From: Gammaproteobacteria bacterium
GTDB taxonomy: Bacteria > Pseudomonadota > Gammaproteobacteria > UBA4575
Assembly (NCBI GenBank): GCA_965222615.1
Contig: CBDCUI010000008.1
Location: forward strand, 768,001 to 832,000
Reading direction: 5' to 3'
DNA length: 64,000 bases
Part shown: piece after piece, positions 51,065 to 63,585 of the stretch
Position numbering within the stretch: the first letter of the stretch is position 1
How the letters are laid out: every line of letters begins with the position of its first letter
Program-made: the position numbers and the translations under genes
Notes under the pieces: generated by a model
What the model was told of the DNA's origin: nothing
Database searches by the model: none
The model's input: only the letters and a program-made list of their open reading frames with translations

Positions 51065-52285
51065 CTATCTGTTATTCATCCAGGATGGTAGCTTGAAATT
51101 GCCAACATTGTATGGTTCAGGGGCAATTAATATCTGTTCATATTTATCTCCTTGGATTTGAAAAAACAAATGTGGCATTCCCAAAGATGGATCGTTAGTA
51201 GCATCTGGGAAAGGGATAGCTGCTTGCCATTTAGAGTGATAGTTAATAATTCCTGCTACGCTTCTGTATATTGTTTCTTTTAGTTTTTCTGCCACCTGTT
51301 TATTTTGTTCAATATCTCCAGGGTGCCCAGTGCCGCCAGCAAGTGTTGCTGCAATTGCGTAATGATGCATTGCACCATATGGTAAGCAACCCACACTGGG
51401 AGTTGAATTTTCACCGAATCGAGCATAGTACCTTTTTGCAAATGCGCGACCTATTTCATCCTGTAATAACCCGATTACCGTACCAACAATAATACCTCTA
51501 GCAGCTTCACCAGCAACTTCTGTAAAAGCTTGATGCATGGCTCCATACTGTAAATAGATAAGACTATTAGTAGGGTTTTCTAAAAATTGTTTTTGAAAAT
51601 GTGCAAGATCAACAGAATAGAAATGAGTGTTTGCTATTGCAGACGGGTTTATTTTGTTTAATTTTTTAAGCACATCACGCCATTCAGTGGTCGGTGTTTG
51701 AACAATCTCAGGGCCAAAAGCTATTTCCCATCCAAAGTTCTTTGCTACCGATTTCATCGCATTTGCAATAACGATGCTATAGGGTTTTGATCCAGAAATA
51801 ATCGCAAGTTTGTTATTGGATGGCTTCCATTTATCTGAATCACGTAACCAAGAAATAAATTTGATAAAACCTTGGCCGTACCAATATTCAGCTGGATCAC
51901 CCATGAAGCAACCGAAGTAGCGTTCAGGGTCACCCGTTACAGTGTCATGATGTTGTAATAATGTATTATGATTTATGTAGATGATGCCAGCATCGGCAAT
52001 AATGTCATATTCTGCATTTTGTGGACCAATATTATAACCATTAATTATGGCATGCACGTGGCTTTCATTAATTAACGATTGTGCAGCTGCAATTACTTCA
52101 CCAGCGGTTTGGGTTCGAGTATCGGCAGAAATCAGTTCAATCATCTGCCCGCAGATCCCTCCTTTTGAGTTGATTTCTTCAACAGCTAATAATGCTCCGT
52201 TGAGTGATTCAATTCCGTCTGCTGCTGAAGGGCCCGTGAGTGGTACCATCGAACCAATAGGAATTGTTTCGCTAGTGTTTTTCAC
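51065..52285 (-). CDS. Leu/Ile/Val-type (AmiC-like) binding-protein fold without signal peptide; probable cytoplasmic sensor
   Basis: IGSMVPLTGPSAADG, LAVEEINSKGGICG begin at residue ~10; GTGA overlap with kinase stop. Confidence 0.8.
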   Translation of the reverse strand: MKNTSETIPIGSMVPLTGPSAADGIESLNGALLAVEEINSKGGICGQMIELISADTRTQTAGEVIAAAQSLINESHVHAIINGYNIGPQNAEYDIIADAGIIYINHNTLLQHHDTVTGDPERYFGCFMGDPAEYWYGQGFIKFISWLRDSDKWKPSNNKLAIISGSKPYSIVIANAMKSVAKNFGWEIAFGPEIVQTPTTEWRDVLKKLNKINPSAIANTHFYSVDLAHFQKQFLENPTNSLIYLQYGAMHQAFTEVAGEAARGIIVGTVIGLLQDEIGRAFAKRYYARFGENSTPSVGCLPYGAMHHYAIAATLAGGTGHPGDIEQNKQVAEKLKETIYRSVAGIINYHSKWQAAIPFPDATNDPSLGMPHLFFQIQGDKYEQILIAPEPYNVGNFKLPSWMNNR

Positions 52286-54222
52286 GCATTTGTTTCCTGC
52301 AAGGATTTTGGCTCAAATAATAAATTGTGCATCATCAGTCTTAGCTGCGGGGGGTTCAATGGTTTGATCAAAATTGGAAAATTTAGTGACTTGATATACT
52401 CAATTATTTTCGGATCAGTGTCTGCAGTCATAACGATGCACGGAAGGCTGGAATCAAGTTTTTTTCTTATTGAGTTTGCAACTTGAGTGCCTGTAGTACC
52501 CGCGTGTAATCTGTAGTCAACAAGCAATAAATCAGGTGTCCAATCTTCAGTATCTAGAATTGATAAAACATTTTCCTCACTTTCAGCTAAACGTATGTTT
52601 ACACCCCATCTATTAAAGAGTTCAGCTAGTGAGTCGCGAAGAATCTCATCATCTTCAACAATTAAAACTTTTGTTTTGGAAAATTCTCCACCAATGGCTT
52701 CACTAATTTCAGGTTCTCCAACTTCACTTTTCCAAACATCACCTAAAGGTAAATCAATTGCAAATACAGATCCTTTCCCTAAAGAAGATTTAAGATGAAT
52801 GCAATGGTCAAGTAGCTTAGCTATACGTTGAGCAATATTAAGGCCAAGTCCTAATCCTTGTTTTTGCTTTTTTATTTTTTTGGGTACTTGATAAAATTCA
52901 TCAAAAATTGTGTCTAAATGCTCTTCAGGAATGCCACAACCTGTATCATGAATTTCAAGTCTAATTTTGTTACTTTTTCTGCGACAGCCAATCAATATCT
53001 TTCCAATATCTGTATAGCGGATTGCATTGGCAACAAAGTTGCTAATTATACGTTCAAGTAATGCACTATCACTGACGATTGTGACTTTGGTTGGAACGAC
53101 ATGAAAGTATAAACCTTTTTCTGTAGCTTGATGCTTGAACTGAATTTCGATACGTTCTAAAAGTGATGCCAGTTGAAAATTAGTAACGCGAGGGGTAATT
53201 TTACCTGCGTCAAGATGACCTACTTGAAGTAAAACGTTTAGAATATCTTCCATAATACTTGCTGAAATATCCATTGCATGTAATAAATCCTGACGGTGTT
53301 TTTCATCTTCTTCGTTTATGCACGAGTAGATAAGAATTTTCAGAGTAGCTAATGGTTGTCGCAGATCATGATTTGCGGCACGTAAAAAGCGTGATTTATT
53401 GGTACTCGCGCTTTCTGCGAGTTCTTTTGCTTGTCGTAAAGCTTTTTCACCTCGTCTCTGCGCGGACAAATCATTTATAATAGTAATAGTTCCTGAGGTT
53501 TCTATGTGCTGCTCAATCATTTCAATACTGCGACCATCTGGGAAAAATATTTCTGCTGAGCCCCCATTAATATGTATATGTTTGCGTTCTTCACTCCATT
53601 TGTCACGATCTGTTCCAGAGTATATCTCATTAGTACTTGCAGCGAGATCAATGAAAGCAGAATAGGAAAGACCTTTTTCAAGGCAAGATGAAATAGGATA
53701 AAAAAATTCTTCAAATTTCGAGTTGTAAGTTAATAGCAAATCTTTACTATCCCAAATCGCAATCCCAAAATTGGAATATTCGAAGGCTTGTAAAATCAAG
53801 CTTTGGTCTGTAACCGGTGCTTTTGTATTGCGTAAGCTTGTAATATTTTGAGTTGAACCAATTATTTCCTGGATATCACCACGAGAATCAGGAATCGGAG
53901 TAGCTGTATCACGCACCCAGCAAGTTGACTCATCTGATAAAATAATTCGGTAATCAATTGTCGAGTTATTTCCTGATATTAAATTATTCCAATGTGTTTC
54001 AAATTTTGTGATGTCGAGTTCAGATATTTTAGGAGCATTATTGTTAGATTTTAGATAGAGTATGAGTGGAGGCAATGATAAATTTTGTAATGATCCTGTT
54101 TGCCAAATAACATTGGGTTTCCCTAATTTATCAATGCAAACTGAATAAGAGATGCATTCGATAAGACTTGCAGCAACCGAAAATCTATCAACTGTTGGTG
54201 AAGTAGAAGGATCAAGCAACAT
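52282..54222 (-). CDS. Soluble hybrid sensor histidine kinase (PAS-PAS-HisKA-HATPase-REC)
   Basis: NHDLRQPL, NFVANAIRYT, DTGCGI, GLGLGL, receiver VEDD..LVDY..KP; no TM segment evident. Confidence 0.92.
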   Translation of the reverse strand: MLLDPSTSPTVDRFSVAASLIECISYSVCIDKLGKPNVIWQTGSLQNLSLPPLILYLKSNNNAPKISELDITKFETHWNNLISGNNSTIDYRIILSDESTCWVRDTATPIPDSRGDIQEIIGSTQNITSLRNTKAPVTDQSLILQAFEYSNFGIAIWDSKDLLLTYNSKFEEFFYPISSCLEKGLSYSAFIDLAASTNEIYSGTDRDKWSEERKHIHINGGSAEIFFPDGRSIEMIEQHIETSGTITIINDLSAQRRGEKALRQAKELAESASTNKSRFLRAANHDLRQPLATLKILIYSCINEEDEKHRQDLLHAMDISASIMEDILNVLLQVGHLDAGKITPRVTNFQLASLLERIEIQFKHQATEKGLYFHVVPTKVTIVSDSALLERIISNFVANAIRYTDIGKILIGCRRKSNKIRLEIHDTGCGIPEEHLDTIFDEFYQVPKKIKKQKQGLGLGLNIAQRIAKLLDHCIHLKSSLGKGSVFAIDLPLGDVWKSEVGEPEISEAIGGEFSKTKVLIVEDDEILRDSLAELFNRWGVNIRLAESEENVLSILDTEDWTPDLLLVDYRLHAGTTGTQVANSIRKKLDSSLPCIVMTADTDPKIIEYIKSLNFPILIKPLNPPQLRLMMHNLLFEPKSLQETNA

Positions 54223-54237
54223 TTAATTTGGAAATTA

Positions 54238-54915
54238 TTATTCAGGAAGGCTGACTGCAAAATGTATCGCTTGTGCTCGATCTGATAAGCCTAATTTTTT
54301 CATTGAGCTTCGCATATGTACACGTACAGTACTCGGGCTAATTTCTAATGATTTGGCTATCTTAGAATCTGATAAGCCTTGACCTAATAGTTTGAAGACT
54401 TGGCGTTCACGAGCCGTGAGCTTTTCAATATTCAATGATTTTGAATTTAATAAAAGTTGCTTTGATTTCGATTTGATCAACTTATCTTTGTCTTCCTGTA
54501 ATTCTGTCTTTGATTCAGTTTGTATTAATATTTGACGTGGGAAGGACACATCACCTGCAAGTACACGAGAAAGAGATTCAACCATATCTGCGCCTTGAGC
54601 AGATTTAGGAATATAGCCAACTACACCATGTTTTATCGACTGAAGTACATAGTCTCTATCCTCATGAACTGAAATGACAACTATAGGAATGTTCGGGAAA
54701 AGCTGTCGTAATTTAATCAAACCAGCAAATTCATCAAAGCCAGGCATGATCAAATCAATGACCATTAAAGATATGTCAGGATTGTTATCTAGTATAGTTA
54801 CAGCGTCATCAAAGGCTGCAGCTTCATAAGGTTCGAATTTTTCATCAATTCTAAGCAGAACGTGCTTAATTGATTCTCTGACAATCCAATGGTCATCTGC
54901 TATGAGGATTTTCAT
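54238..54915 (-). CDS. NarL/LuxR-family response regulator
   Basis: ILIADDH, IDLIMPG, GYIPK, LTARERQV...TVRVH HTH. Confidence 0.94.
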   Translation of the reverse strand: MKILIADDHWIVRESIKHVLLRIDEKFEPYEAAAFDDAVTILDNNPDISLMVIDLIMPGFDEFAGLIKLRQLFPNIPIVVISVHEDRDYVLQSIKHGVVGYIPKSAQGADMVESLSRVLAGDVSFPRQILIQTESKTELQEDKDKLIKSKSKQLLLNSKSLNIEKLTARERQVFKLLGQGLSDSKIAKSLEISPSTVRVHMRSSMKKLGLSDRAQAIHFAVSLPE

Positions 54916-55092: not shown

Positions 55093-55280
55093 TATAAACA
55101 AAATGTTTATATGTAATTTCATGGCTAAAAGCTTGTTATAGATAAACAATTTGTTTATAAACAATTCATAACTTACACAAACATATTGACTAGTCTGATT
55201 GCGATGATATAGTTATATTATTTACAAAACAATAATAAATAATTGGTACATGGGCATAGATTATAAACAATATGTTTATA
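55093..55280. promoter_or_regulatory. Three palindromic operator candidates ATAAACA-N3-TGTTTAT
   Basis: Copies at 55093-55111, 55141-55159, 55262-55280. Confidence 0.7.
55186..55213 (+). promoter_or_regulatory. Putative sigma70 promoter of the transporter/DMFase operon
   Basis: TTGACT-16 bp-TATAGT with extended -10 TG. Confidence 0.5.
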
Positions 55281-55458: not shown

Positions 55459-56826
55459 ATGACTGATAAGAAAAAAAATGGCTTTGATGAAAATAAAGAA
55501 ATGAATAAAAACCAAAATACAAGACGTAATATTTTAAAAGGAGCAGCAGCTGTAGCAGCAGTATCTTCTCTTCCAGCACCCTGGGTAAGGCGAGTTAATG
55601 CATCTGATAAAATCCTTTTAGGGGTTCCTTCGTCATTATCTACACCATACGGTGTTGCAGATGACCAAGATCACCTCAATGGGACTATTCTTGCACAGGA
55701 AGAAATTAATGCTGCAGGAGGGATCCAAGGTAGAGAATTAGAGCTATTTGTACCTGATGTAGATAAATTAAACCCTGAGAGTTGTAGACAGACAATCGCG
55801 GCATGTATTGATAAGAAAGTACATGCGATATCTAATGCATTTTTATTTGCACCCATACCTGCTATGGACGAATCTGCGAAATATAAGTGCCCATACTTAC
55901 AAGGAAATACACAGCGTAATGCTACGGATGCATTCAAAGCTGAGCCAGAAAAATACAGTCATATTTTCCAAACGGATCCCTCTGAAGTTAATTATGGATG
56001 GACATACCCACTCTGGTTGACTCATATGGAAAAAGAGCAGGGATGGAAGCCAAAAAACCGAAGGATTCATATTGTTGCGGAACAAGTTGGCTATAATCAA
56101 ACTATCTTAGCCGCTGCAAAAGAATCTATTCCAAAATATGATTTTGAATTAGCTGAAGTAACGGATATTCAATATCCAGTGAATGATTGGGCGCCAGTCA
56201 TACAAAGACTAAAAGAAGTAGATGCTGGTGCAATTATGATTGATCACTGGGTGGCTTCTGAATATGCCGCATTTTGTAAACAATTTGTGGCAGATCCTGT
56301 GAAAGATTCGATTGTGTATCTTCAATACGGCCCTTCACAGCCTGAGTTTTTAGAACTTGGTGGCCGTGCTACAGAAGGATTTTGTTGGAGTACAGTTCTT
56401 GGAATTTATGGTGACAAACTAGGCCAAGACTTTAGAGCAAAGTATTTAAAACGTTTTCCTGAGTTTGGTGATACAAAACGCAATACCATGGGCCTTGTGT
56501 ATACGGGCAATGGTTACGACATTGTCAAGTATCTCGAAAAAGCTTGGAATGCTACAAAAGCGCTCGATACAACTCCGGAAGATTTCAAGAAAGTTTGTGA
56601 TTGGGTAAGAGCAAATCCTGATCGTGGTGTATGCGGCATGATGGACATGAACAATGAATATCAAGAAGCGCTGCACTATCCAGATAACGGATTTAATCTG
56701 CAAGCAGATTCCCACGAAACCGGTATGAGTCAACTGTATGTGCAAGTGCAAGATGTTCAGCATAAGATCATTTGGCCGGATGCAATCGCTGAGACTAAAT
56801 TACAACCTTCACCATGGTGGGGTTAA
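55459..56826 (+). CDS. Tat-exported ABC substrate-binding protein (Liv/HAAT type)
   Basis: TRRNILKGAAAVAA twin-arginine signal; LAQEEINAAGGIQGRELE. Confidence 0.88.
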   Translation: MTDKKKNGFDENKEMNKNQNTRRNILKGAAAVAAVSSLPAPWVRRVNASDKILLGVPSSLSTPYGVADDQDHLNGTILAQEEINAAGGIQGRELELFVPDVDKLNPESCRQTIAACIDKKVHAISNAFLFAPIPAMDESAKYKCPYLQGNTQRNATDAFKAEPEKYSHIFQTDPSEVNYGWTYPLWLTHMEKEQGWKPKNRRIHIVAEQVGYNQTILAAAKESIPKYDFELAEVTDIQYPVNDWAPVIQRLKEVDAGAIMIDHWVASEYAAFCKQFVADPVKDSIVYLQYGPSQPEFLELGGRATEGFCWSTVLGIYGDKLGQDFRAKYLKRFPEFGDTKRNTMGLVYTGNGYDIVKYLEKAWNATKALDTTPEDFKKVCDWVRANPDRGVCGMMDMNNEYQEALHYPDNGFNLQADSHETGMSQLYVQVQDVQHKIIWPDAIAETKLQPSPWWG

Positions 56827-56853
56827 TCTAAAGCAACGCTGGGGGTAGACATC

Positions 56854-57585
56854 ATGGATGATCATTCATCTGCCCCACTATTTTCATGTGAAAATTTGTC
56901 ACTCGATTTAGGTGGCAGAGAAATTCTACGTGATATTGATTTGGAAATATGTCCAGGTGAAGTACTGGGTATTATTGGGCCCAATGGTGCCGGGAAAACT
57001 AGTTTACTTGAAATTCTTTCAGGCCGTTACACGCCTAAAACTGGAAATGTTTTTTTCAAAGGAAAAAACATCACAAATTTACATTTGTATCAACGTGCAA
57101 GAATTGGAATTGGTAGAACATATCAAACTCCTGTTGTACCGGAAGACTTAACTGTTGGTGAGACTTTTAAAGCTGCACGACAAGCTTACAAACCTTATTT
57201 AACACGTTTTGATGCAGAGTATGCCGCTGATCTGGTCGACTTTGTTGTTGATCATGACGTTTTAAACACTCAGCTTAAAACCTTTAACCGGCGCAAATTA
57301 TTACTCGCCAATATTCTAATGAAAAAACCTGAGTTGCTATTGATGGATGAACCCGCTGCGGGCCTGATAAATTCCGAAATAGATGAGATTGACGAAATAC
57401 TTAGAATGTTATCTAAAGAAATGAATATCGCAGTAATGATTGTAGAACATAGGATTGAATTGCTGGATACGATTGCAGATAGAGTGATTGTAATGGATGC
57501 AGGTGAAATCATTGCAAGAGGTTATCTCAACGAAATAATAAATAGTCCTGCAGTTCGCGCTGCGTATTTTGAAACGGTTACTTAA
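56854..57585 (+). CDS. ABC ATPase (LivG-like)
   Basis: GPNGAGKTS, GRTYQ, LMDEPAAG, VEH; degenerate signature motif. Confidence 0.9.
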   Translation: MDDHSSAPLFSCENLSLDLGGREILRDIDLEICPGEVLGIIGPNGAGKTSLLEILSGRYTPKTGNVFFKGKNITNLHLYQRARIGIGRTYQTPVVPEDLTVGETFKAARQAYKPYLTRFDAEYAADLVDFVVDHDVLNTQLKTFNRRKLLLANILMKKPELLLMDEPAAGLINSEIDEIDEILRMLSKEMNIAVMIVEHRIELLDTIADRVIVMDAGEIIARGYLNEIINSPAVRAAYFETVT

Positions 57586-57599
57586 TAACTTAATCATCT

Positions 57600-58307
57600 A
57601 TGAGTGAAATTTTAAATGTAAAAGGACTTTCTGCTGGATATGGACCCTTACGGGTAATTCATGATTTAGATTTAATCGTTAACTCAGGTGAGTGCATTGG
57701 ATTGGTTGGATTAAATGGCCATGGGAAAACAACATTATTTTATGCCGTTGCAGGTTTAACAGGATGGCAGCGTGGCTCAATTATATTTAATGGCAAACAA
57801 ATTGGGCGTACACGTAGTCAAGGGCCAGGTCGCTATACACATCTAATTGTTAGACAGGGCCTTGCCATTATGCCGCAAGGTGACGAGATATTTCACGGCT
57901 TAACTGTTGAAGAGCATCTCGATAGTGGTGCATTTACTAAAGAGGCATGGAAGACACGCAAGCAAAGGAAAGAGCAAGTACTAGATTTGTTTGAGCCTTT
58001 AAAAAATTTACTGAAAACTCCAGTAGCACGTTTATCGGGTGGGGAGCGAAGGATGGTTTCTATCGGGCGTGGACTGATGACAGATGCAAAACTTTATCTT
58101 GCCGATGAACCATCTTTGGGTTTAGCGCCGAAAATTGGAATCGGTGTAATGGAAGCATTATTAAAAATTGAATTAAGTGGATCTGCAATGATTATTGCGG
58201 AACAAAATGTAGCCCTATTAGAAGGAAAAGTCGATCGTGTAATCGGGATGCACGCAGGTAAATTAAAAGGTGAAGCCTCTTCCGCTTTATCAATGCATTT
58301 AAATTGA
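57600..58307 (+). CDS. ABC ATPase (LivF-like)
   Basis: GLNGHGKTT, LSGGERRM, DEPSLGLAP, EQN. Confidence 0.9.
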   Translation: MSEILNVKGLSAGYGPLRVIHDLDLIVNSGECIGLVGLNGHGKTTLFYAVAGLTGWQRGSIIFNGKQIGRTRSQGPGRYTHLIVRQGLAIMPQGDEIFHGLTVEEHLDSGAFTKEAWKTRKQRKEQVLDLFEPLKNLLKTPVARLSGGERRMVSIGRGLMTDAKLYLADEPSLGLAPKIGIGVMEALLKIELSGSAMIIAEQNVALLEGKVDRVIGMHAGKLKGEASSALSMHLN

Positions 58308-58316
58308 AAAGGACTG

Positions 58317-59201
58317 TTGTTGGATATTGACTTTATTATTATTAATGCAGTTGTAGTGGCATGTATCTACGGCCTTGTTGCAGTAGCTGTATCGATAACT
58401 TGGTCAAGTTTAGGATTATTAAATCTGGGTTACGGTTTTATATTTTCCTTTGCTGGATACGGTGCATACCTCATGTCGCGTATGATATGGGATCATCCAG
58501 TAGCGGTGCTAATTGCTGGTGTGCTGGTAGGTGCGCTAGGTGGAATTCTAATTTGTGCATTAGTCTTTATTCCACTGCACGATAAACCAAACTTTACGAT
58601 CAGAGGCATGGTAGGGACACTTGCGATTAGCTTAATTGGGTCGCAGTGTTTGCTTTGGTATTTTGGCCCTAAAAACAAAGCACTTCCTGAAATATTTGGT
58701 TATTGGAAAGTCTCTATTGGAGGTACAGTTTTAACGTCTGACAAAATTGGAATTGTCGTCTGTTCTATTTTAATGCTGATTTTTGTAGTGCGTTGGATGA
58801 AATCAAGTCGGCGTGGTCTAGAAATTAGAGCCATGATGATGAATCCACATGCTGCATCTATTGTTGGAATTGGGATAAGAAGAACAGGTTTTTATGTCAT
58901 GGCTATCACTGGTGCCATGGCAGGACTTTCCTCGGTATTACTTTCACAAACTTATTACATAGCACCTTTCAGTGGTCTTACCCCATTAATCAAAGGAGTG
59001 AGCATTGCCTTGATGGGGGGTTTAGGCAGTGTACAAGGCGCAGTAATTGCGGCAATTATTTTAGGTATTACAGAAGCTTTTACTTCAAGATTACTAGGAG
59101 GTCAGTATGTATTGATTACTCAGTTTTTAGTAATCATCACGGTTTTAATTATTAGGCCTAGAGGAATCGCCGGTATATTAGATAAAGCACGTGAACAATG
59201 A
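58317..59201 (+). CDS. ABC permease (LivH-like)
   Basis: Multi-TM; GLEIRA, GGLGSVQGA, RPRGI. Confidence 0.9.
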   Translation: MLDIDFIIINAVVVACIYGLVAVAVSITWSSLGLLNLGYGFIFSFAGYGAYLMSRMIWDHPVAVLIAGVLVGALGGILICALVFIPLHDKPNFTIRGMVGTLAISLIGSQCLLWYFGPKNKALPEIFGYWKVSIGGTVLTSDKIGIVVCSILMLIFVVRWMKSSRRGLEIRAMMMNPHAASIVGIGIRRTGFYVMAITGAMAGLSSVLLSQTYYIAPFSGLTPLIKGVSIALMGGLGSVQGAVIAAIILGITEAFTSRLLGGQYVLITQFLVIITVLIIRPRGIAGILDKAREQ

Positions 59202-60853
59202 GCACCGCACCCGATAAACAATATACGTGGAAAAATCCGTTAGCGATTTGGGGCGCAAAGGGCGGTAATTATGAAGTCCCAACGATTCGTGTAACGGATC
59301 CAAAATCAATTTGGGAACAAAATACAGAGTATAAAGTTCCTCTATATAAAGTTGGTAGATTTAAATATATCCACAAATGGAAAAATCATGGTGGCCGTTT
59401 ATGGGAAAGATTACGGTGGTGGCCAACACGCAGAACCTTGCTACTGATTCGTGGTTACTACAATAAAAAATCTCTTAAAGCACAAAAATTAATTGTAGAT
59501 AAAAGGCCTATCTATTGGGCAATTTGTTTATTAGCTTTAGCAGTTGCCCCATTTTTTCTACCTGAAGGAGTTCAGAACACTTTATTAACTGCAGGGGCTA
59601 TTTTTGGAATATATGCTGCAATTAATATATGTTGGACTCTTGTTATTGGGACAGCCAGTATTTTCTCACTTGCTACCTATGCGATAGTGGGAGTAGCGGC
59701 ATTTTGTACTTCGTGGCTCTCGATTAAGTTAGGTTATCCTTGGTGGTCGTTGCCTTTAATTGGTATGGCGATTGGGTTTATTTTTGGCGGAATTATTGCA
59801 CTTCCTGCAATGCGTTTGGATGGGTTTTATTATGCACTACTAACCTTGGGCCTAAATGAGCTTTGTAGAGTATATGTAGTCACGTCTAAAGAATTTGGGT
59901 CTGCATCGGGAGGATTGTACGGCGCCTCATCTTATATTAATTCTGATTGGTCACCTCTTACACAATCTTTAGTTTCTTATTACGGTGCTTTTGCGTTGCT
60001 TATTGCGTCACTATTCCTGTTTAGGTTTATAGATGGAAAACGAATTGGAAGATTATTAAAAATGGCGCCTGAGAAAAGAGAAGCGTTTGCAGAGGCAACC
60101 GGAGTGAATTATAAGAATGCAAGAATAACTGTATTCTTAATTTCTTCAGTCGCTTTAGGATTTATTGGTGGTTTTTATACCGCGCACTATCGCGGTGTGG
60201 CATTTTCAATTTTCAGTTTTGACACCGTATTGCTGGGCCTGGCAATGCTTACTATTGGAGGCATTGGTAGAGCTGAAGGTGCAGTAGCAGGAACTTTGAT
60301 TGTCGTATTTTTAGATAAAGTTTTGATCACACTAGGTCCAATACGTCACATTATGATTGGGTTATTGATGTTATTTGTTGTTTTATTTTTGAACAGAGGC
60401 TTGTTCGGCATGAAAAAACAATTTCGTGCCTGGAGAGATAAAAAGAAAGGCGAATGGCGATCCAGTCGCACTGAAAAAGGTGGTGAAGCATTACCTGAAG
60501 AAGCTACTGAAATTCATGACAAAGATGTTTTATACCATCGGCGTTTTGACAAAATGCAACGAGATTATCTGAAGACACTAGTTTGTGATGAAGTGATTGA
60601 AGAACACAAAAATAAACCATTGGGACAACACAGTGAAGCACTTGAAAGACTATTGTTGTATTTTCGTCGTGTTCCACAAATTGATAAGTATGCAATTAAA
60701 CGAGATGAATACTCGAATACTTTTAAAATTGTTGCTTTTTCTGGTCATAGAGGCACATCACCACGATTAGTTGAAGATAAAGAGTATAAAACAGTAGAAG
60801 AAGCTTATCATGGAGTATTTTTAAGACGTGTTTATGATTTGCTTGAATCATAA
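59198..60853 (+). CDS. ABC permease (LivM-like) with C-terminal DMFase small-subunit-like domain
   Basis: RLDGFYYALLTL, GGIGRAEGA core; last 111 aa align without gaps to 60875-61234. Confidence 0.9.
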   Translation: MSTAPDKQYTWKNPLAIWGAKGGNYEVPTIRVTDPKSIWEQNTEYKVPLYKVGRFKYIHKWKNHGGRLWERLRWWPTRRTLLLIRGYYNKKSLKAQKLIVDKRPIYWAICLLALAVAPFFLPEGVQNTLLTAGAIFGIYAAINICWTLVIGTASIFSLATYAIVGVAAFCTSWLSIKLGYPWWSLPLIGMAIGFIFGGIIALPAMRLDGFYYALLTLGLNELCRVYVVTSKEFGSASGGLYGASSYINSDWSPLTQSLVSYYGAFALLIASLFLFRFIDGKRIGRLLKMAPEKREAFAEATGVNYKNARITVFLISSVALGFIGGFYTAHYRGVAFSIFSFDTVLLGLAMLTIGGIGRAEGAVAGTLIVVFLDKVLITLGPIRHIMIGLLMLFVVLFLNRGLFGMKKQFRAWRDKKKGEWRSSRTEKGGEALPEEATEIHDKDVLYHRRFDKMQRDYLKTLVCDEVIEEHKNKPLGQHSEALERLLLYFRRVPQIDKYAIKRDEYSNTFKIVAFSGHRGTSPRLVEDKEYKTVEEAYHGVFLRRVYDLLES

Positions 60854-60874
60854 GAGTAATTTTGTATTTAGAAA

Positions 60875-61234
60875 ATGGACACTAAAAACAAAATAGAAAA
60901 TAAAGATCTAATATATCGCCAGTACTATGACAAGATGCAAGGTGATTATTTGAAGACGCTTATTTGTGATGAAATTATTGAAGAGTATAAAAATAACCCC
61001 TTGGGCCAACACAGTGAGCCACTTTCTAGATTATTACATTTTTTTAGTAGTGCTCCACAAAAAGATAAATATGCACTCAAGTATGATGAACACAATCACA
61101 CATATAAAATAATTGCATTGTCAGGTAAAAGAGGTGAGACTCCGCAATATGTTGAAGATAAAGAATATAAAAAGTTAGAAGATGCATATCACGGAGTATT
61201 CTTAAGACGTATTAATGACTTAATGAATTCATAA
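60875..61234 (+). CDS. N,N-dimethylformamidase small subunit (DmfA1-like)
   Basis: EIIEEYKNNPLG..L.RLLHFF and EDAYHGVFLRRINDL resemble recalled Paracoccus DmfA1 segments; directly upstream of the large subunit. Confidence 0.8.
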   Translation: MDTKNKIENKDLIYRQYYDKMQGDYLKTLICDEIIEEYKNNPLGQHSEPLSRLLHFFSSAPQKDKYALKYDEHNHTYKIIALSGKRGETPQYVEDKEYKKLEDAYHGVFLRRINDLMNS

Positions 61235-61263
61235 TTACTGCTTAAAAACTTTGGAATAATGAA

Positions 61264-63585
61264 ATGGCAGAAGTAAAAATATTTGGATATACAAATAAAA
61301 TTTCAGTTAAACAAGGTGAAAGTATTAATTTTCACGTAAGTGCAGATGGTATTAATACAGCAAGTGCACAGCTTGTGCGGCTCATTCATGGTGATCAGCA
61401 TCCAGATGGGCCTGGATTTGTAGAAAAGGAAATCGATTGTCTATTAAATGGAGAATGGGAAGTTAAAAAGCAGTTTACTCAATTAGGATCTTATTTGGTT
61501 GTTGATGATGTCAGTCAAAAGTTAAATATAGACGGGAGTTTTACATTGTTCTGCTATATCTGGCCTAGCATTCCAAAAAAGGGTTTACGTCAAACTCTAT
61601 TAGGTAAATGGGATGCAAGAACTAATGAAGGTTATGGAATTGGAATTAGTCCTGAAGGGCATCTCGAATTTTGGGTGGGTGACGGCAAAGAAATAGATTA
61701 TCTAGCTTCTGAATTACCACTAGTAGATAAAGTTTGGTATTTCGTTGGTGCAAGTTTTGATCATCACACTAAAGTTGCAACATTATATCAAGAAGGAGTT
61801 TTAAATAGATATAACTCATTAATTGGGAAAGTCGCACCATATGACTTTCGCTCGCACATGCAAACCACTTTTAGGTTTAAGCAAAAAAACCGAGAGGATG
61901 TACCTTTTATGATAGCCGGTGCTCTGGATTTTCATGAGTTAAGAGGCAATTTTGTTAATGACACTTATTTTGGGAAGATCGATTGCCCGGGAATTTGTAA
62001 CCGCTCTTTATCGCGAAAAGAAATGGATGACATCTGTTCTGGAGAGCTCCCTCCGCAAGGTTCCATTTTAGCTTATTGGGATACCGCAGAAGGATATACA
62101 GAAAACGGAATTGGAAATACTGTTGTTGATATTGGTCCACATGGATTAAATGCCAATGGTGTAAATCATCCTATACGTTGCTTAACCGGGTGGAATTGGT
62201 CAGGGAAAAATGATTGCTTCAGGCTAGCACCAGAAGAATATGGAGGAATTGAATTTCATCCAGAATCAATAACAGATTGTAATTGGGAAGTTACCAAATC
62301 TATGCAAATTCCGGCAGATTTAAAAAGTGGCGTTTATGCAATGCGTTTGACTGCGGGTACTGGCGTAGGTTTAGCAGAAGAGCATGTAGTATTTTTTGTG
62401 CGTCCCTCACAGCCTACATGCAAGCTTTGTTTTCTTGTTCCTACAGCAAGTTATTTAGCCTATGCAAATGAAAAGTTAAGTTTTGATGCACAAATTATTC
62501 AGCCCATGACTGGACAGCCTCCCGTAATTACAGATGTTGATATAGAGATTTACAAGCATCGCGAATTTGGCTTGTCAACTTATGATAGTTACGAAGACGG
62601 TGCAGGTGTTTCATTTAGCTCTTATAAAAGGCCAATTGTAAACATGCGACCGAAATATCGTATATCAAGTATGAATATACCCTGGCAGCTTCCTGCTGAT
62701 CTTTCTATTATTGGTTGGTTAGAAGCGTGTAATTATGAATATGATGTTATAACTGATGAAGACTTACATCGTGAAGGTTTAAGTGCTATTCAACCTTATA
62801 ACTGTCTTATTACCGGCACTCACCCTGAATATGTATCTGAAAAAATGCTCGATGCACAAGAAGACTTCGTCGCACAAGGAGGCAGGCTTATTTACACAGG
62901 CGGTAATGGCTATTACTGGTGTGTAGGTTTTTATGATGATGAACCGTGGTGTATGGAAGTTCGCAAATTAGATTCTGGAATGCGTGCGTGGGCTGCTAAA
63001 GCAGGCGAACACTATCTACAAACTACAGGTGAGAAAAGTGGCTTATGGAGAAATCGAGGACGTGCACCACAAAAGTTAACCGGTGTTGGATTTATAGCTG
63101 AAGGATTTGAAACTTGTGCACCTTTTCGCAAAATGCCTGATAGCTATCATCGCACAGTATCTTGGATTTCAGAAGGAATAGAGGGAGAAATAATTGGTAA
63201 TGAAGGTTTAGCTTATGGTGGTGCTGCTGGGATTGAACTTGATCGCTATGATCTTTCATTGGGCACACCCCCTCACACTAAAATCATTGCGTCATCTGGT
63301 GGTCATAGTGATAACTATGTGCTAGTAACCGAAGAGCTTCTTTATGCCTACGCCGGATTGATAGGTAGTTTGGATTATCGAATACGTGCGGACATGACTT
63401 ACTTTACTGCACCAAATAATGGTGCAGTGTTTAGCACTGGTTCTATAGCATTTGGTTCAGCTTTACCCGTAAATAATTACAACAATAATGCTTCAACATT
63501 ATTTAAAACTATTGTAGATAATTTTATTAAAGATGGGAAACTCCCAGGAGCTAGTTGGACACTTGAGGAGAAACAGTGGAGATAA
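61264..63585 (+). CDS. N,N-dimethylformamidase large subunit family (DmfA2-like)
   Basis: LVRLIHGD-HPDGPG, LamG-like domain, SYLAYANE, GLSTYD, TGTHPEY, ELDRYDLSLGTPP, RADMTYF. Confidence 0.92.
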   Translation: MAEVKIFGYTNKISVKQGESINFHVSADGINTASAQLVRLIHGDQHPDGPGFVEKEIDCLLNGEWEVKKQFTQLGSYLVVDDVSQKLNIDGSFTLFCYIWPSIPKKGLRQTLLGKWDARTNEGYGIGISPEGHLEFWVGDGKEIDYLASELPLVDKVWYFVGASFDHHTKVATLYQEGVLNRYNSLIGKVAPYDFRSHMQTTFRFKQKNREDVPFMIAGALDFHELRGNFVNDTYFGKIDCPGICNRSLSRKEMDDICSGELPPQGSILAYWDTAEGYTENGIGNTVVDIGPHGLNANGVNHPIRCLTGWNWSGKNDCFRLAPEEYGGIEFHPESITDCNWEVTKSMQIPADLKSGVYAMRLTAGTGVGLAEEHVVFFVRPSQPTCKLCFLVPTASYLAYANEKLSFDAQIIQPMTGQPPVITDVDIEIYKHREFGLSTYDSYEDGAGVSFSSYKRPIVNMRPKYRISSMNIPWQLPADLSIIGWLEACNYEYDVITDEDLHREGLSAIQPYNCLITGTHPEYVSEKMLDAQEDFVAQGGRLIYTGGNGYYWCVGFYDDEPWCMEVRKLDSGMRAWAAKAGEHYLQTTGEKSGLWRNRGRAPQKLTGVGFIAEGFETCAPFRKMPDSYHRTVSWISEGIEGEIIGNEGLAYGGAAGIELDRYDLSLGTPPHTKIIASSGGHSDNYVLVTEELLYAYAGLIGSLDYRIRADMTYFTAPNNGAVFSTGSIAFGSALPVNNYNNNASTLFKTIVDNFIKDGKLPGASWTLEEKQWR

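Follow-up and report, generated by a model that had tools for sequence, protein, structure and literature searches.

The LivM/UrtC-type permease gene of an ABC importer operon in a gammaproteobacterium (UBA4575 lineage) ends in a complete small-subunit domain of N,N-dimethylformamidase (DMFase), and the gene for the large, catalytic subunit of the enzyme lies just downstream. The operon is part of a stretch of 64,000 nucleotides (assembly GCA_965222615.1, contig CBDCUI010000008.1, positions 768,001 to 832,000, forward strand), which as a whole is called the window here. We put the probability at roughly 0.7 that the permease tail serves as the enzyme's small subunit and in this way keeps the hydrolase attached to its importer. 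The fusion was first noticed in a reading of the DNA made without database searches, referred to below as the original prediction. The parts of the fused gene and the enzyme genes that follow it are:

59198..60853, + strand: fused permease open reading frame (ORF), 551 aa; LivM/UrtC-type permease ending in a DMFase small-subunit domain
59198..59506, + strand: N-terminal extension, residues 1-103; basic, non-hydrophobic and family-specific, with an RWWPTRR motif and 23 K+R vs 7 D+E
59507..60409, + strand: ten-helix transmembrane domain, residues 104-404, type II ABC-importer fold (Pfam; AlphaFold2 helices 103-397; BtuC match)
60410..60490, + strand: linker, residues 405-431; basic, aromatic-faced juxtamembrane helix (predicted helix 402-424 or 403-426)
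60491..60853, + strand: complete DMFase small-subunit domain, residues 432-551 and the stop codon, opening with the acidic motif LPEEATE
60875..61234, + strand: free small subunit, 119 aa; 6LVB_B at E 6.5e-9; a fast-evolving paralogue
61264..63585, + strand: DMFase-like large (catalytic) subunit, 773 aa; 6LVB_A at E 4.5e-175 over residues 1-762, DMFA2_C at 297 bits

The identity of the tail is clear from both sequence and predicted fold. In BLASTP, residues 438-551 of the fused protein align to residues 6-119 of the free small subunit with 72/114 identities (63%), 94/114 positives and no gaps (E 6e-55), which bears out the gapless alignment counted by hand in the original prediction (71/111). 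With phmmer, residues 430-548 match positions 6-127 of the 132 in the Paracoccus small-subunit chain 6LVB_B (E 2.9e-9). An AlphaFold2 model of the last 152 residues, built from 111 sequences, has a per-residue confidence (pLDDT) of 87-97 over the domain. It consists of helices at 43-62, 65-73, 81-91 and 134-151 and strands at 99-104 and 109-114. This agrees with the small subunit as described in the available sections of PMC7686228, where the fold has two strands and four helices, the N- and C-terminal ones being long. The model superimposes on 6LVB_B (Foldseek) with a TM-score of 0.82 and a root-mean-square deviation of 2.4 Å over 119 columns (E 7.7e-8), and its only three matches in the PDB with E < 0.001 are all DMFase small-subunit chains. 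Judged by its relatives, the domain belongs to PF26354 (DMF_alpha, Pfam 38.1), which precomputed annotation places on proteins up to 94% identical to it in this region. The LPEEATE motif belongs to the small subunit proper and not to the linker, and the pattern P[ED][ED]A occurs in 69/74 fused domains vs 1/61 operon-linked free copies.

The fused frame is continuous and widespread. As had been claimed, the linker in the window holds no stop codon, and 59198-60853 is a single open frame. Taking one genome per species, we confirmed 160 of 193 candidate stretches by tblastn and fetched the best 80 loci, of which 73 encode an uninterrupted permease-linker-domain ORF. Three others are cut by contig ends (L019, L038, L068). 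In the remaining four (L028, L045, L060, L081) the frame has frameshift-like breaks, either inside the domain or beyond it, and neighbouring genes are also broken there. L045 at first appeared to be a split form, but its two overlapping ORFs are the product of a frameshift; similar breaks occur in neighbouring genes of L044, L060, L076 and L081. Homologues are thus not always split, the outcome that would have spoken against the prediction, and no true split form was counted among the 80 loci. Of 935 candidates in a search with the tail region, 579 protein clusters reached E <= 0.001, and all 120 relatives listed from it carry both PF02653 and PF26354. When residues 1-404 were used instead, PF26354 was present on 119 of the 120 relatives listed, the exception being a protein of 453 aa on a 1945-base contig. 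The carriers amount to at least 160 species, which supports the view of an old and maintained fusion. By record title they span the alpha-, beta- and gammaproteobacteria, and they include a Pelagibacteraceae single-cell genome, roseobacters, Bradyrhizobium and conjugative Agrobacterium/Rhizobium plasmids. Ocean metagenomes gave matches in clusters of up to 644 members, as well as in Tara records. Within the window's own family the operon is patchy (4/24 other genomes), and one genome of the same genus lacks it.

That the long ORF is an artefact of assembly or sequencing, with a missed stop codon or frameshift, is effectively refuted by these data. A run of six A residues does stand at the start of the linker (60412-60417), and the contigs of one public run (X2 records 2 and 3) break within the linker region, with a 5-base overlap. 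However, 73 of 80 independent assemblies, drawn from three proteobacterial classes, contain the same frame, and so do the 579 protein clusters and 1656-base genes on complete Agrobacterium and Aminobacter plasmids, where NCBI names it branched-chain amino acid ABC transporter permease. The contigs of three public runs (two samples of one study, possibly the window's own source) show no insertion or deletion over 59198-61300, and X1 record 1 and X3 record 8 cross the linker without a difference. X3 has no cover at 60689-60901; we drew no conclusion from this gap or from the breaks in X2.

The membrane part of the fused protein is a typical importer domain. BPD_transp_2 (PF02653) matches residues 136-395 with 75.5 bits vs a gathering threshold of 26.8. 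The full-length AlphaFold2 model has a mean pLDDT of 61 (50-92 in the transmembrane region) and was used for helix counting, topology and fold class only. It places ten transmembrane helices within residues 103-397, and residues 96-399 align to the whole of BtuC (2QI9_A, chain residues 3-324; Z 14.1, 261 residues). The loop at 276-309, which forms the basic coupling region, is followed by four helices and then by the tail, which starts with a K/R run. In BtuC both termini are cytoplasmic. Given the basic N-terminus, the ten predicted helices and the BtuC-like fold, both ends of the fused permease, and hence the tail domain, should be on the cytoplasmic side, the orientation that had been assumed.

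The linker is the most conserved part of the protein. Across 74 genes, 12 of its 27 columns are invariant, vs 90/301 in the transmembrane part, 35/120 in the domain and 15/103 in the N-terminal extension. Its sequence (residues 405-431) is KKQFRAWRDKKKGEWRSSRTEKGGEA, and the last transmembrane helix ends at about 397-404. The original prediction had described a charged linker of about 35 aa. The basic linker holds, as 27 nearly invariant residues; roughly half of the 35 aa belong instead to the small subunit proper, as its N-terminal extension. Confidence in the predicted linker helix is low to moderate (pLDDT 53-63 in the tail model). F409, W412 and W420 share one face of it, amid basic residues, and we infer that the helix is interfacial or contacts a protein. 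At the other end of the permease, the N-terminal extension (residues 1-103) is tryptophan-rich (WxNPL, RWWPTRR) and predicted to be beta-rich with pLDDT < 50. It has no Pfam match and no credible relative in the Atlas, where the best matches reached only 0.77. The extension is presumably cytoplasmic and could be a second cytoplasmic docking element.

The gene order around the fusion ties it to the enzyme. A large-subunit coding sequence lies just downstream of the fused gene, next to it or with one small-subunit gene in between, in 75/75 loci with enough DNA (in L081 it is in pieces), so that the expected co-occurrence was found throughout. The 80 loci have the following layouts:

fused permease - free small - large (the window's order): 45 loci, including the frameshifted L045 and L060
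fused permease - large, without a free small subunit: 17 loci, spacers of 2-97 bases
fused permease - large - free small - large: 11 loci
fused permease - broken large - large: 1 locus, L076
too short or broken to classify: 6 loci (L003, L019, L037, L038, L068, L081)

The layout without a free small subunit is also seen as annotated on plasmid pAt of A. tumefaciens strain 186 (L083). Of the 17 genomes with this layout, we searched 15 in full (all but L043 and L067), using a profile built from 39 small subunits. The fused copy is the sole small-subunit homologue in four of them. Two others have two fused copies and one distant copy, and the remaining nine have one to three distant free copies. 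In the five genomes examined for the position of such copies, all 10 distant free copies directly adjoin a large-subunit paralogue of their own, which leaves the large subunit of the operon with the fused domain alone. In these genomes, exactly one small-subunit coding sequence, whether a free gene or the permease tail, thus comes before every large-subunit gene. The Paracoccus large subunit is described as inactive without the small one (PMC7686228, available sections); the tail is therefore the only candidate partner there. The proposal that the fused copy can stand in for the free subunit is supported by the 17 loci and four genomes.

The double layout occurs in Bradyrhizobium and Rhodopseudomonas (L052, L053, L058, L059, L064, L066, L070, L072, L075, L079 and L080). 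There appears to be one small-subunit sequence for each large subunit. The two large subunits arose by duplication within the clade, and the layout suggests a tethered and a soluble isoenzyme. As a separate observation, the Aminobacter sp. MDW-2 plasmid pMDW2 (L084) has two large-subunit genes after the fused permease with no free small subunit between them, as does L076.

The original prediction had taken the fused domain to be a second copy added to a free original. Rates and trees point the other way. We computed nonsynonymous divergence (dN) against the window for 15 loci. It is 0.057-0.163 for the fused domain, 0.063-0.159 for the transmembrane part, 0.075-0.159 for the large subunit, 0-0.116 for the linker and 0.145-0.44 for the free copy. 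The fused domain thus keeps the slow pace of the transmembrane part and the catalytic subunit; the pace of the free copy is 2-4 times faster. Synonymous divergence (dS) is saturated in all pairs, even with the closest relative (L018), which indicates strongly purifying selection; of the dN/dS check that had been proposed, only dN was compared and no omega is given. Over the same 37 loci, 50 of 120 columns are invariant in the fused domain vs 4 of 119 in the free copy. In a midpoint-rooted tree of the large subunit, one clade (support 98) unites the loci that share the window's layout, and its sister is the Pelagibacteraceae locus; the other clade holds the loci with no free copy and with the double layout. 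In the small-domain tree, free copies linked to the operon have long branches and are nested within the fused domains; with 121 columns, this tree leaves the number of free-copy origins unresolved. Taken together, the sequence comparisons suggest that the fusion is ancestral to the group and that the free copies are later, fast derivatives.

The large subunit in the window keeps the catalytic residues. The residues aligned to Paracoccus Y399, Y440, E521, H519 and N547 in 6LVB_A are all identical. Y399, Y440 and E521 are described as the iron ligands, and roles are also given for H519 and N547 (PMC7686228, available sections). The large subunit also matches 8HUY (E 3e-108), an N-acetyl-(R)-beta-phenylalanine acylase that belongs to the family but acts on a different substrate.

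From these parts we propose a nine-gene module for the inducible uptake and hydrolysis of a small neutral amide. A HAAT importer that depends on a substrate-binding protein (SBP) would feed an iron-dependent amidohydrolase with two subunits, a member of the N,N-dimethylformamidase family. The permease tail would bind the downstream-encoded large subunit as the free small subunit does in the Paracoccus enzyme, and the hydrolase would be held on the cytoplasmic face of its own importer. In the Paracoccus enzyme the active-site entrance is reported to be built by both subunits (PMC7686228, available sections), so a tether would place this entrance near the permease. Substrate released into the cell would meet the entrance at once, and a neutral, leaky amide would be converted to charged products unable to diffuse back out. 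Since the large subunits dimerise and there is one such permease per transporter, the free copy may occupy the second site or supply a soluble pool. Where no free copy exists, one large-subunit dimer could be served by two transporters, because a two-fold axis normal to the membrane would, on geometric grounds, set the N-termini of both small subunits level. What the analysis shows is the fusion, with its fold, conservation, genomic linkage and cytoplasmic side; binding, stoichiometry, channelling or trapping and the substrate are deduced, as are the docking and the gated transport of the original prediction.

A stronger form of this proposal, which we regard as rather doubtful, is that importer and hydrolase are one obligate machine, the permease subunit itself contributing to the entrance for the substrate. 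On leaving the translocation path, the amide would go directly to the tunnel of the active site, and only charged products would come out. Such a machine would be the ABC-driven equivalent of group translocation, acting on a neutral solute that can permeate membranes. Transport cycle and catalysis would be linked allosterically through the basic linker helix. In lineages that lack a free small subunit (the Pelagibacteraceae single-cell genome, Methylocella, Burkholderiales and Agrobacterium pAt) there would be no enzyme outside the membrane complex. The substrate would be a natural small amide older than synthetic DMF (N,N-dimethylformamide).

Several points weigh against tethering, even in its simpler form. 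Contact between tail and large subunit is a proposal. In 45 of 75 loci a free small subunit is kept between the fused gene and the large subunit, and the organisms concerned, among them that of the window, could have a largely soluble enzyme assembled with the free copy. In Paracoccus, the small subunit's N-terminal helix is described as wedging between the two large subunits (PMC7686228, available sections). A tether at this end could be sterically awkward, and the ATPases also occupy the cytoplasmic face. Model confidence is limited to pLDDT 53-63 for the linker helix and is poor for the full-length protein (mean 61). The fusion-first order depends on a midpoint-rooted tree and a short alignment. 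DMF is synthetic and crosses membranes; substrate trapping is an argument and not a result.

Two other explanations accept the fusion as real. It is unlikely, in our view, that the fusion matters for gene expression only, with the tail cleaved off or the tether kinetically silent and the working enzyme a soluble alpha2beta2 form. The order permease - small - large would make a fusion by loss of a stop codon easy, the free copy is kept at most loci, and some free small subunits start at LPEEATE (P0122 begins MLPEEATE), which would be a natural boundary for a possible cleavage. However, one would not expect a spacer that is passive, or serves for cleavage only, to keep 12 of 27 columns invariant in alpha-, beta- and gammaproteobacteria alike. 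Among the 120 nearest transmembrane-domain relatives listed, no close full-length relative without the fusion was found, and there is no conserved internal start, since M405 is I in many relatives. Less probable still is a purely regulatory tail that senses the hydrolase or its product and gates or trans-inhibits the importer, with the free subunit serving as the structural one. Regulatory C-terminal domains occur on the ABC importer ATPases MetN, ModC and MalK, and the high conservation of tail and linker and the free subunit in 45 of 75 loci would suit such a role. It leaves unexplained the 17 loci, and at least four whole genomes, where the adjacent large subunit has no other small subunit, as well as the retention of the whole small-subunit fold in the tail. 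Regulation would also be compatible with tethering and does not exclude it.

The Paracoccus enzyme is the closest known system. Paracoccus DMFase (PDB 6LVB; Arya et al., 2020) is described as a soluble alpha2beta2 or (alpha2beta2)2 protein (PMC7686228, available sections). On plasmid pAMI2 of P. aminophilus, the operon dmfR-dmfA1-dmfA2 encodes a free small subunit, and the available text describes no transporter in the operon; a second dmfA1A2 locus of the same organism is reported as unconnected to the use of DMF (PMC4543880). Further canonical dmfR-dmfA1-dmfA2 loci with a free small subunit appear in the available part of PMC11381386. The window shares with these the two-subunit enzyme, the small-subunit gene directly before the large one, the Tyr/Tyr/Glu iron ligands, the small-subunit fold and a LuxR-type regulator nearby. 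It differs in that one copy of the small subunit forms the C-terminal end of an ABC permease, whereas the Paracoccus small subunit is free and soluble, and the two are only about 27-29% identical. The small-subunit family clustered at 50% consists mostly of free proteins of about 85-190 aa, and four of the eight longer matches scanned are permease fusions. No larger fusion of permease, small and large subunits (> 965 aa) was seen among 325 candidates, which is weak evidence. Two long candidates, P0157 (804 aa) and P0259 (1960 aa), were set aside as composite or artificial-looking, with short small-subunit matches next to many unrelated Pfam families, none passing alone.

The importer is of the HAAT (Liv/Urt) type by Pfam and NCBIfam, and the same five importer genes are found in related loci. 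Like LivHMGF and UrtABCDE, it has five components, namely an SBP, a pair of ATPases and a pair of BPD_transp_2 permeases, the second permease being longer and of the LivM/UrtC type. It differs by the 103-residue N-terminal extension and the enzyme-subunit tail of this permease, and by scores far below the equivalog cut-offs. The fused permease has 61 bits for LivM vs a cut-off of 366, and 44.6 for UrtC vs 296.2. With importer parts far below the cut-offs for LivM, UrtB, UrtC, UrtD and UrtE, the importer belongs to a separate subfamily and the name 'branched-chain amino acid' permease is unjustified. LivHMGF transports branched-chain amino acids and UrtABCDE urea; FmdDEF is a HAAT importer for short-chain amides and urea in Methylophilus.

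Uptake and catabolism are coupled in UreI-urease, GlpF-GlpK and the group translocation of the phosphotransferase system (PTS), and AmpG1 of A. baumannii is reportedly a permease with lytic transglycosylase activity. As in such transporter-enzyme fusions and metabolons, the first catabolic step would here be physically joined to uptake. In contrast to them, what is fused in the window is no catalytic domain but a structural, non-catalytic subunit that belongs to a hetero-oligomeric hydrolase of the cytoplasm, and its partner is the transmembrane subunit of a primary active ABC importer.

The original prediction held the architecture to be undescribed. In the open-access literature, to which the search was confined (subscription papers and supplements fell outside it), we found no description of a fusion between a DMFase or amidase and a permease, and no paper on an ABC importer membrane subunit that carries a subunit of the substrate-consuming enzyme. 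The available part of a genomic survey of DMFase carriers (10.1101/2021.03.18.435917) has no mention of a transporter, permease or fusion. The claim stands to this extent, but the domain pair itself is already present in precomputed Pfam annotation, where PF26354 covers the tail and is paired with PF02653; the entry is silent on function and fusion. The parts are thus known, and the conserved way of joining them is undescribed in the literature searched. A tether, if true, would offer a natural and genetically tractable test of uptake-catabolism coupling as a means of retaining small leaky neutral solutes. The family may matter for the turnover of organic nitrogen in sea and soil, given its wide distribution and the detection of DmfA-type proteins in Pacific metaproteomes (PMC9477243, available sections). 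Hundreds of annotations as 'branched-chain amino acid permease' are corrected by the fusion. The 'DMFase' family would also have a natural role older than solvent degradation; DMF was first made in 1893.

In the ORF list, the fused gene stands in a tightly packed run of + strand genes (55459-63585) that comprises the SBP, two ATPases, two permeases, and the small and large subunits. The genes upstream of the fused permease, with the best promoter match and the regulatory genes beyond them, are:

51065..52285, - strand: AmiC-like ligand-binding protein without a signal peptide; Peripla_BP_6 at E 1.9e-31, PDB 3H5L_A at E 6e-113
52282..54222, - strand: soluble hybrid histidine kinase (PAS, HisKA, HATPase and receiver domains; Pfam)
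54238..54915, - strand: LuxR/GerE-type response regulator (Response_reg and GerE)
55186..55213, + strand: best sigma-70-like promoter match, upstream of the SBP gene; 10/12 consensus with a TG extension
55459..56826, + strand: Tat-signal periplasmic SBP; Peripla_BP_6 at E 2e-21, TAT_signal at its cut-off
56854..57585, + strand: ABC ATPase, UrtD/LivG-like; ABC_tran, UrtD at 160 bits and LivG at 141 bits, both below equivalog cut-offs
57600..58307, + strand: ABC ATPase, UrtE/LivF-like; ABC_tran, UrtE at 134 bits, below its cut-off
58317..59201, + strand: partner permease, UrtB/LivH-like; BPD_transp_2 at 103 bits, its stop overlapping the start of the fused gene by 4 bases

The spacing around the fused gene is tight, with the 4-base overlap upstream and then 21 and 29 bases to the next genes downstream, and no terminator- or promoter-like site stands out between the operon genes. 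The promoter match at 55186..55213 is weak, being a consensus match only in a region that holds fewer such sites than its shuffles.

The module is mobile. Among plasmid records with a large-subunit homologue there are 80, of which 25 are from Agrobacterium and 18 from Rhizobium, and 42 are typed as conjugative. The operon is also present in an 'uncultured Mycobacterium sp.' metagenome-assembled genome (L004) and in 'Oceanobacillus sp. HTM 045' (L026), with permeases 87% and 68% identical to the window's, respectively. Contamination during binning or culture seems more likely here than transfer into Actinomycetota or Bacillota. Two genomes hold two fused copies each, with open frames of 568 and 676 aa (G007, L069) and of 593 and 817 aa (G013, L071). 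L028 is a remnant in which the fused gene starts from about residue 61 and abuts a kinase gene. It has no SBP, ATPase or LivH-like genes, and the free small and large subunits still follow the fused gene.

The three - strand genes at 51065-54915 look like a cytoplasmic amide-sensing three-component system. The end of the AmiC-like gene overlaps the start of the kinase gene by 4 bases, as in translational coupling, and the AmiC-like protein is a probable cytoplasmic sensor. Its match to AmiC itself (1PEA) is weak (E 0.003), and its near match 3H5L is an uncharacterised structure. The kinase scores 341 bits for the NahK/ErcS-type C-terminal region of NCBIfam, below the cut-off of 400 bits. For most of the closest gammaproteobacterial relatives, e.g., L018, the trio was not found within the upstream flanks that were fetched. 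An AmiC-like homologue lies upstream on the opposite strand in 28 of the 80 related loci, and the regulator trio is likewise upstream in 28 of the 80.

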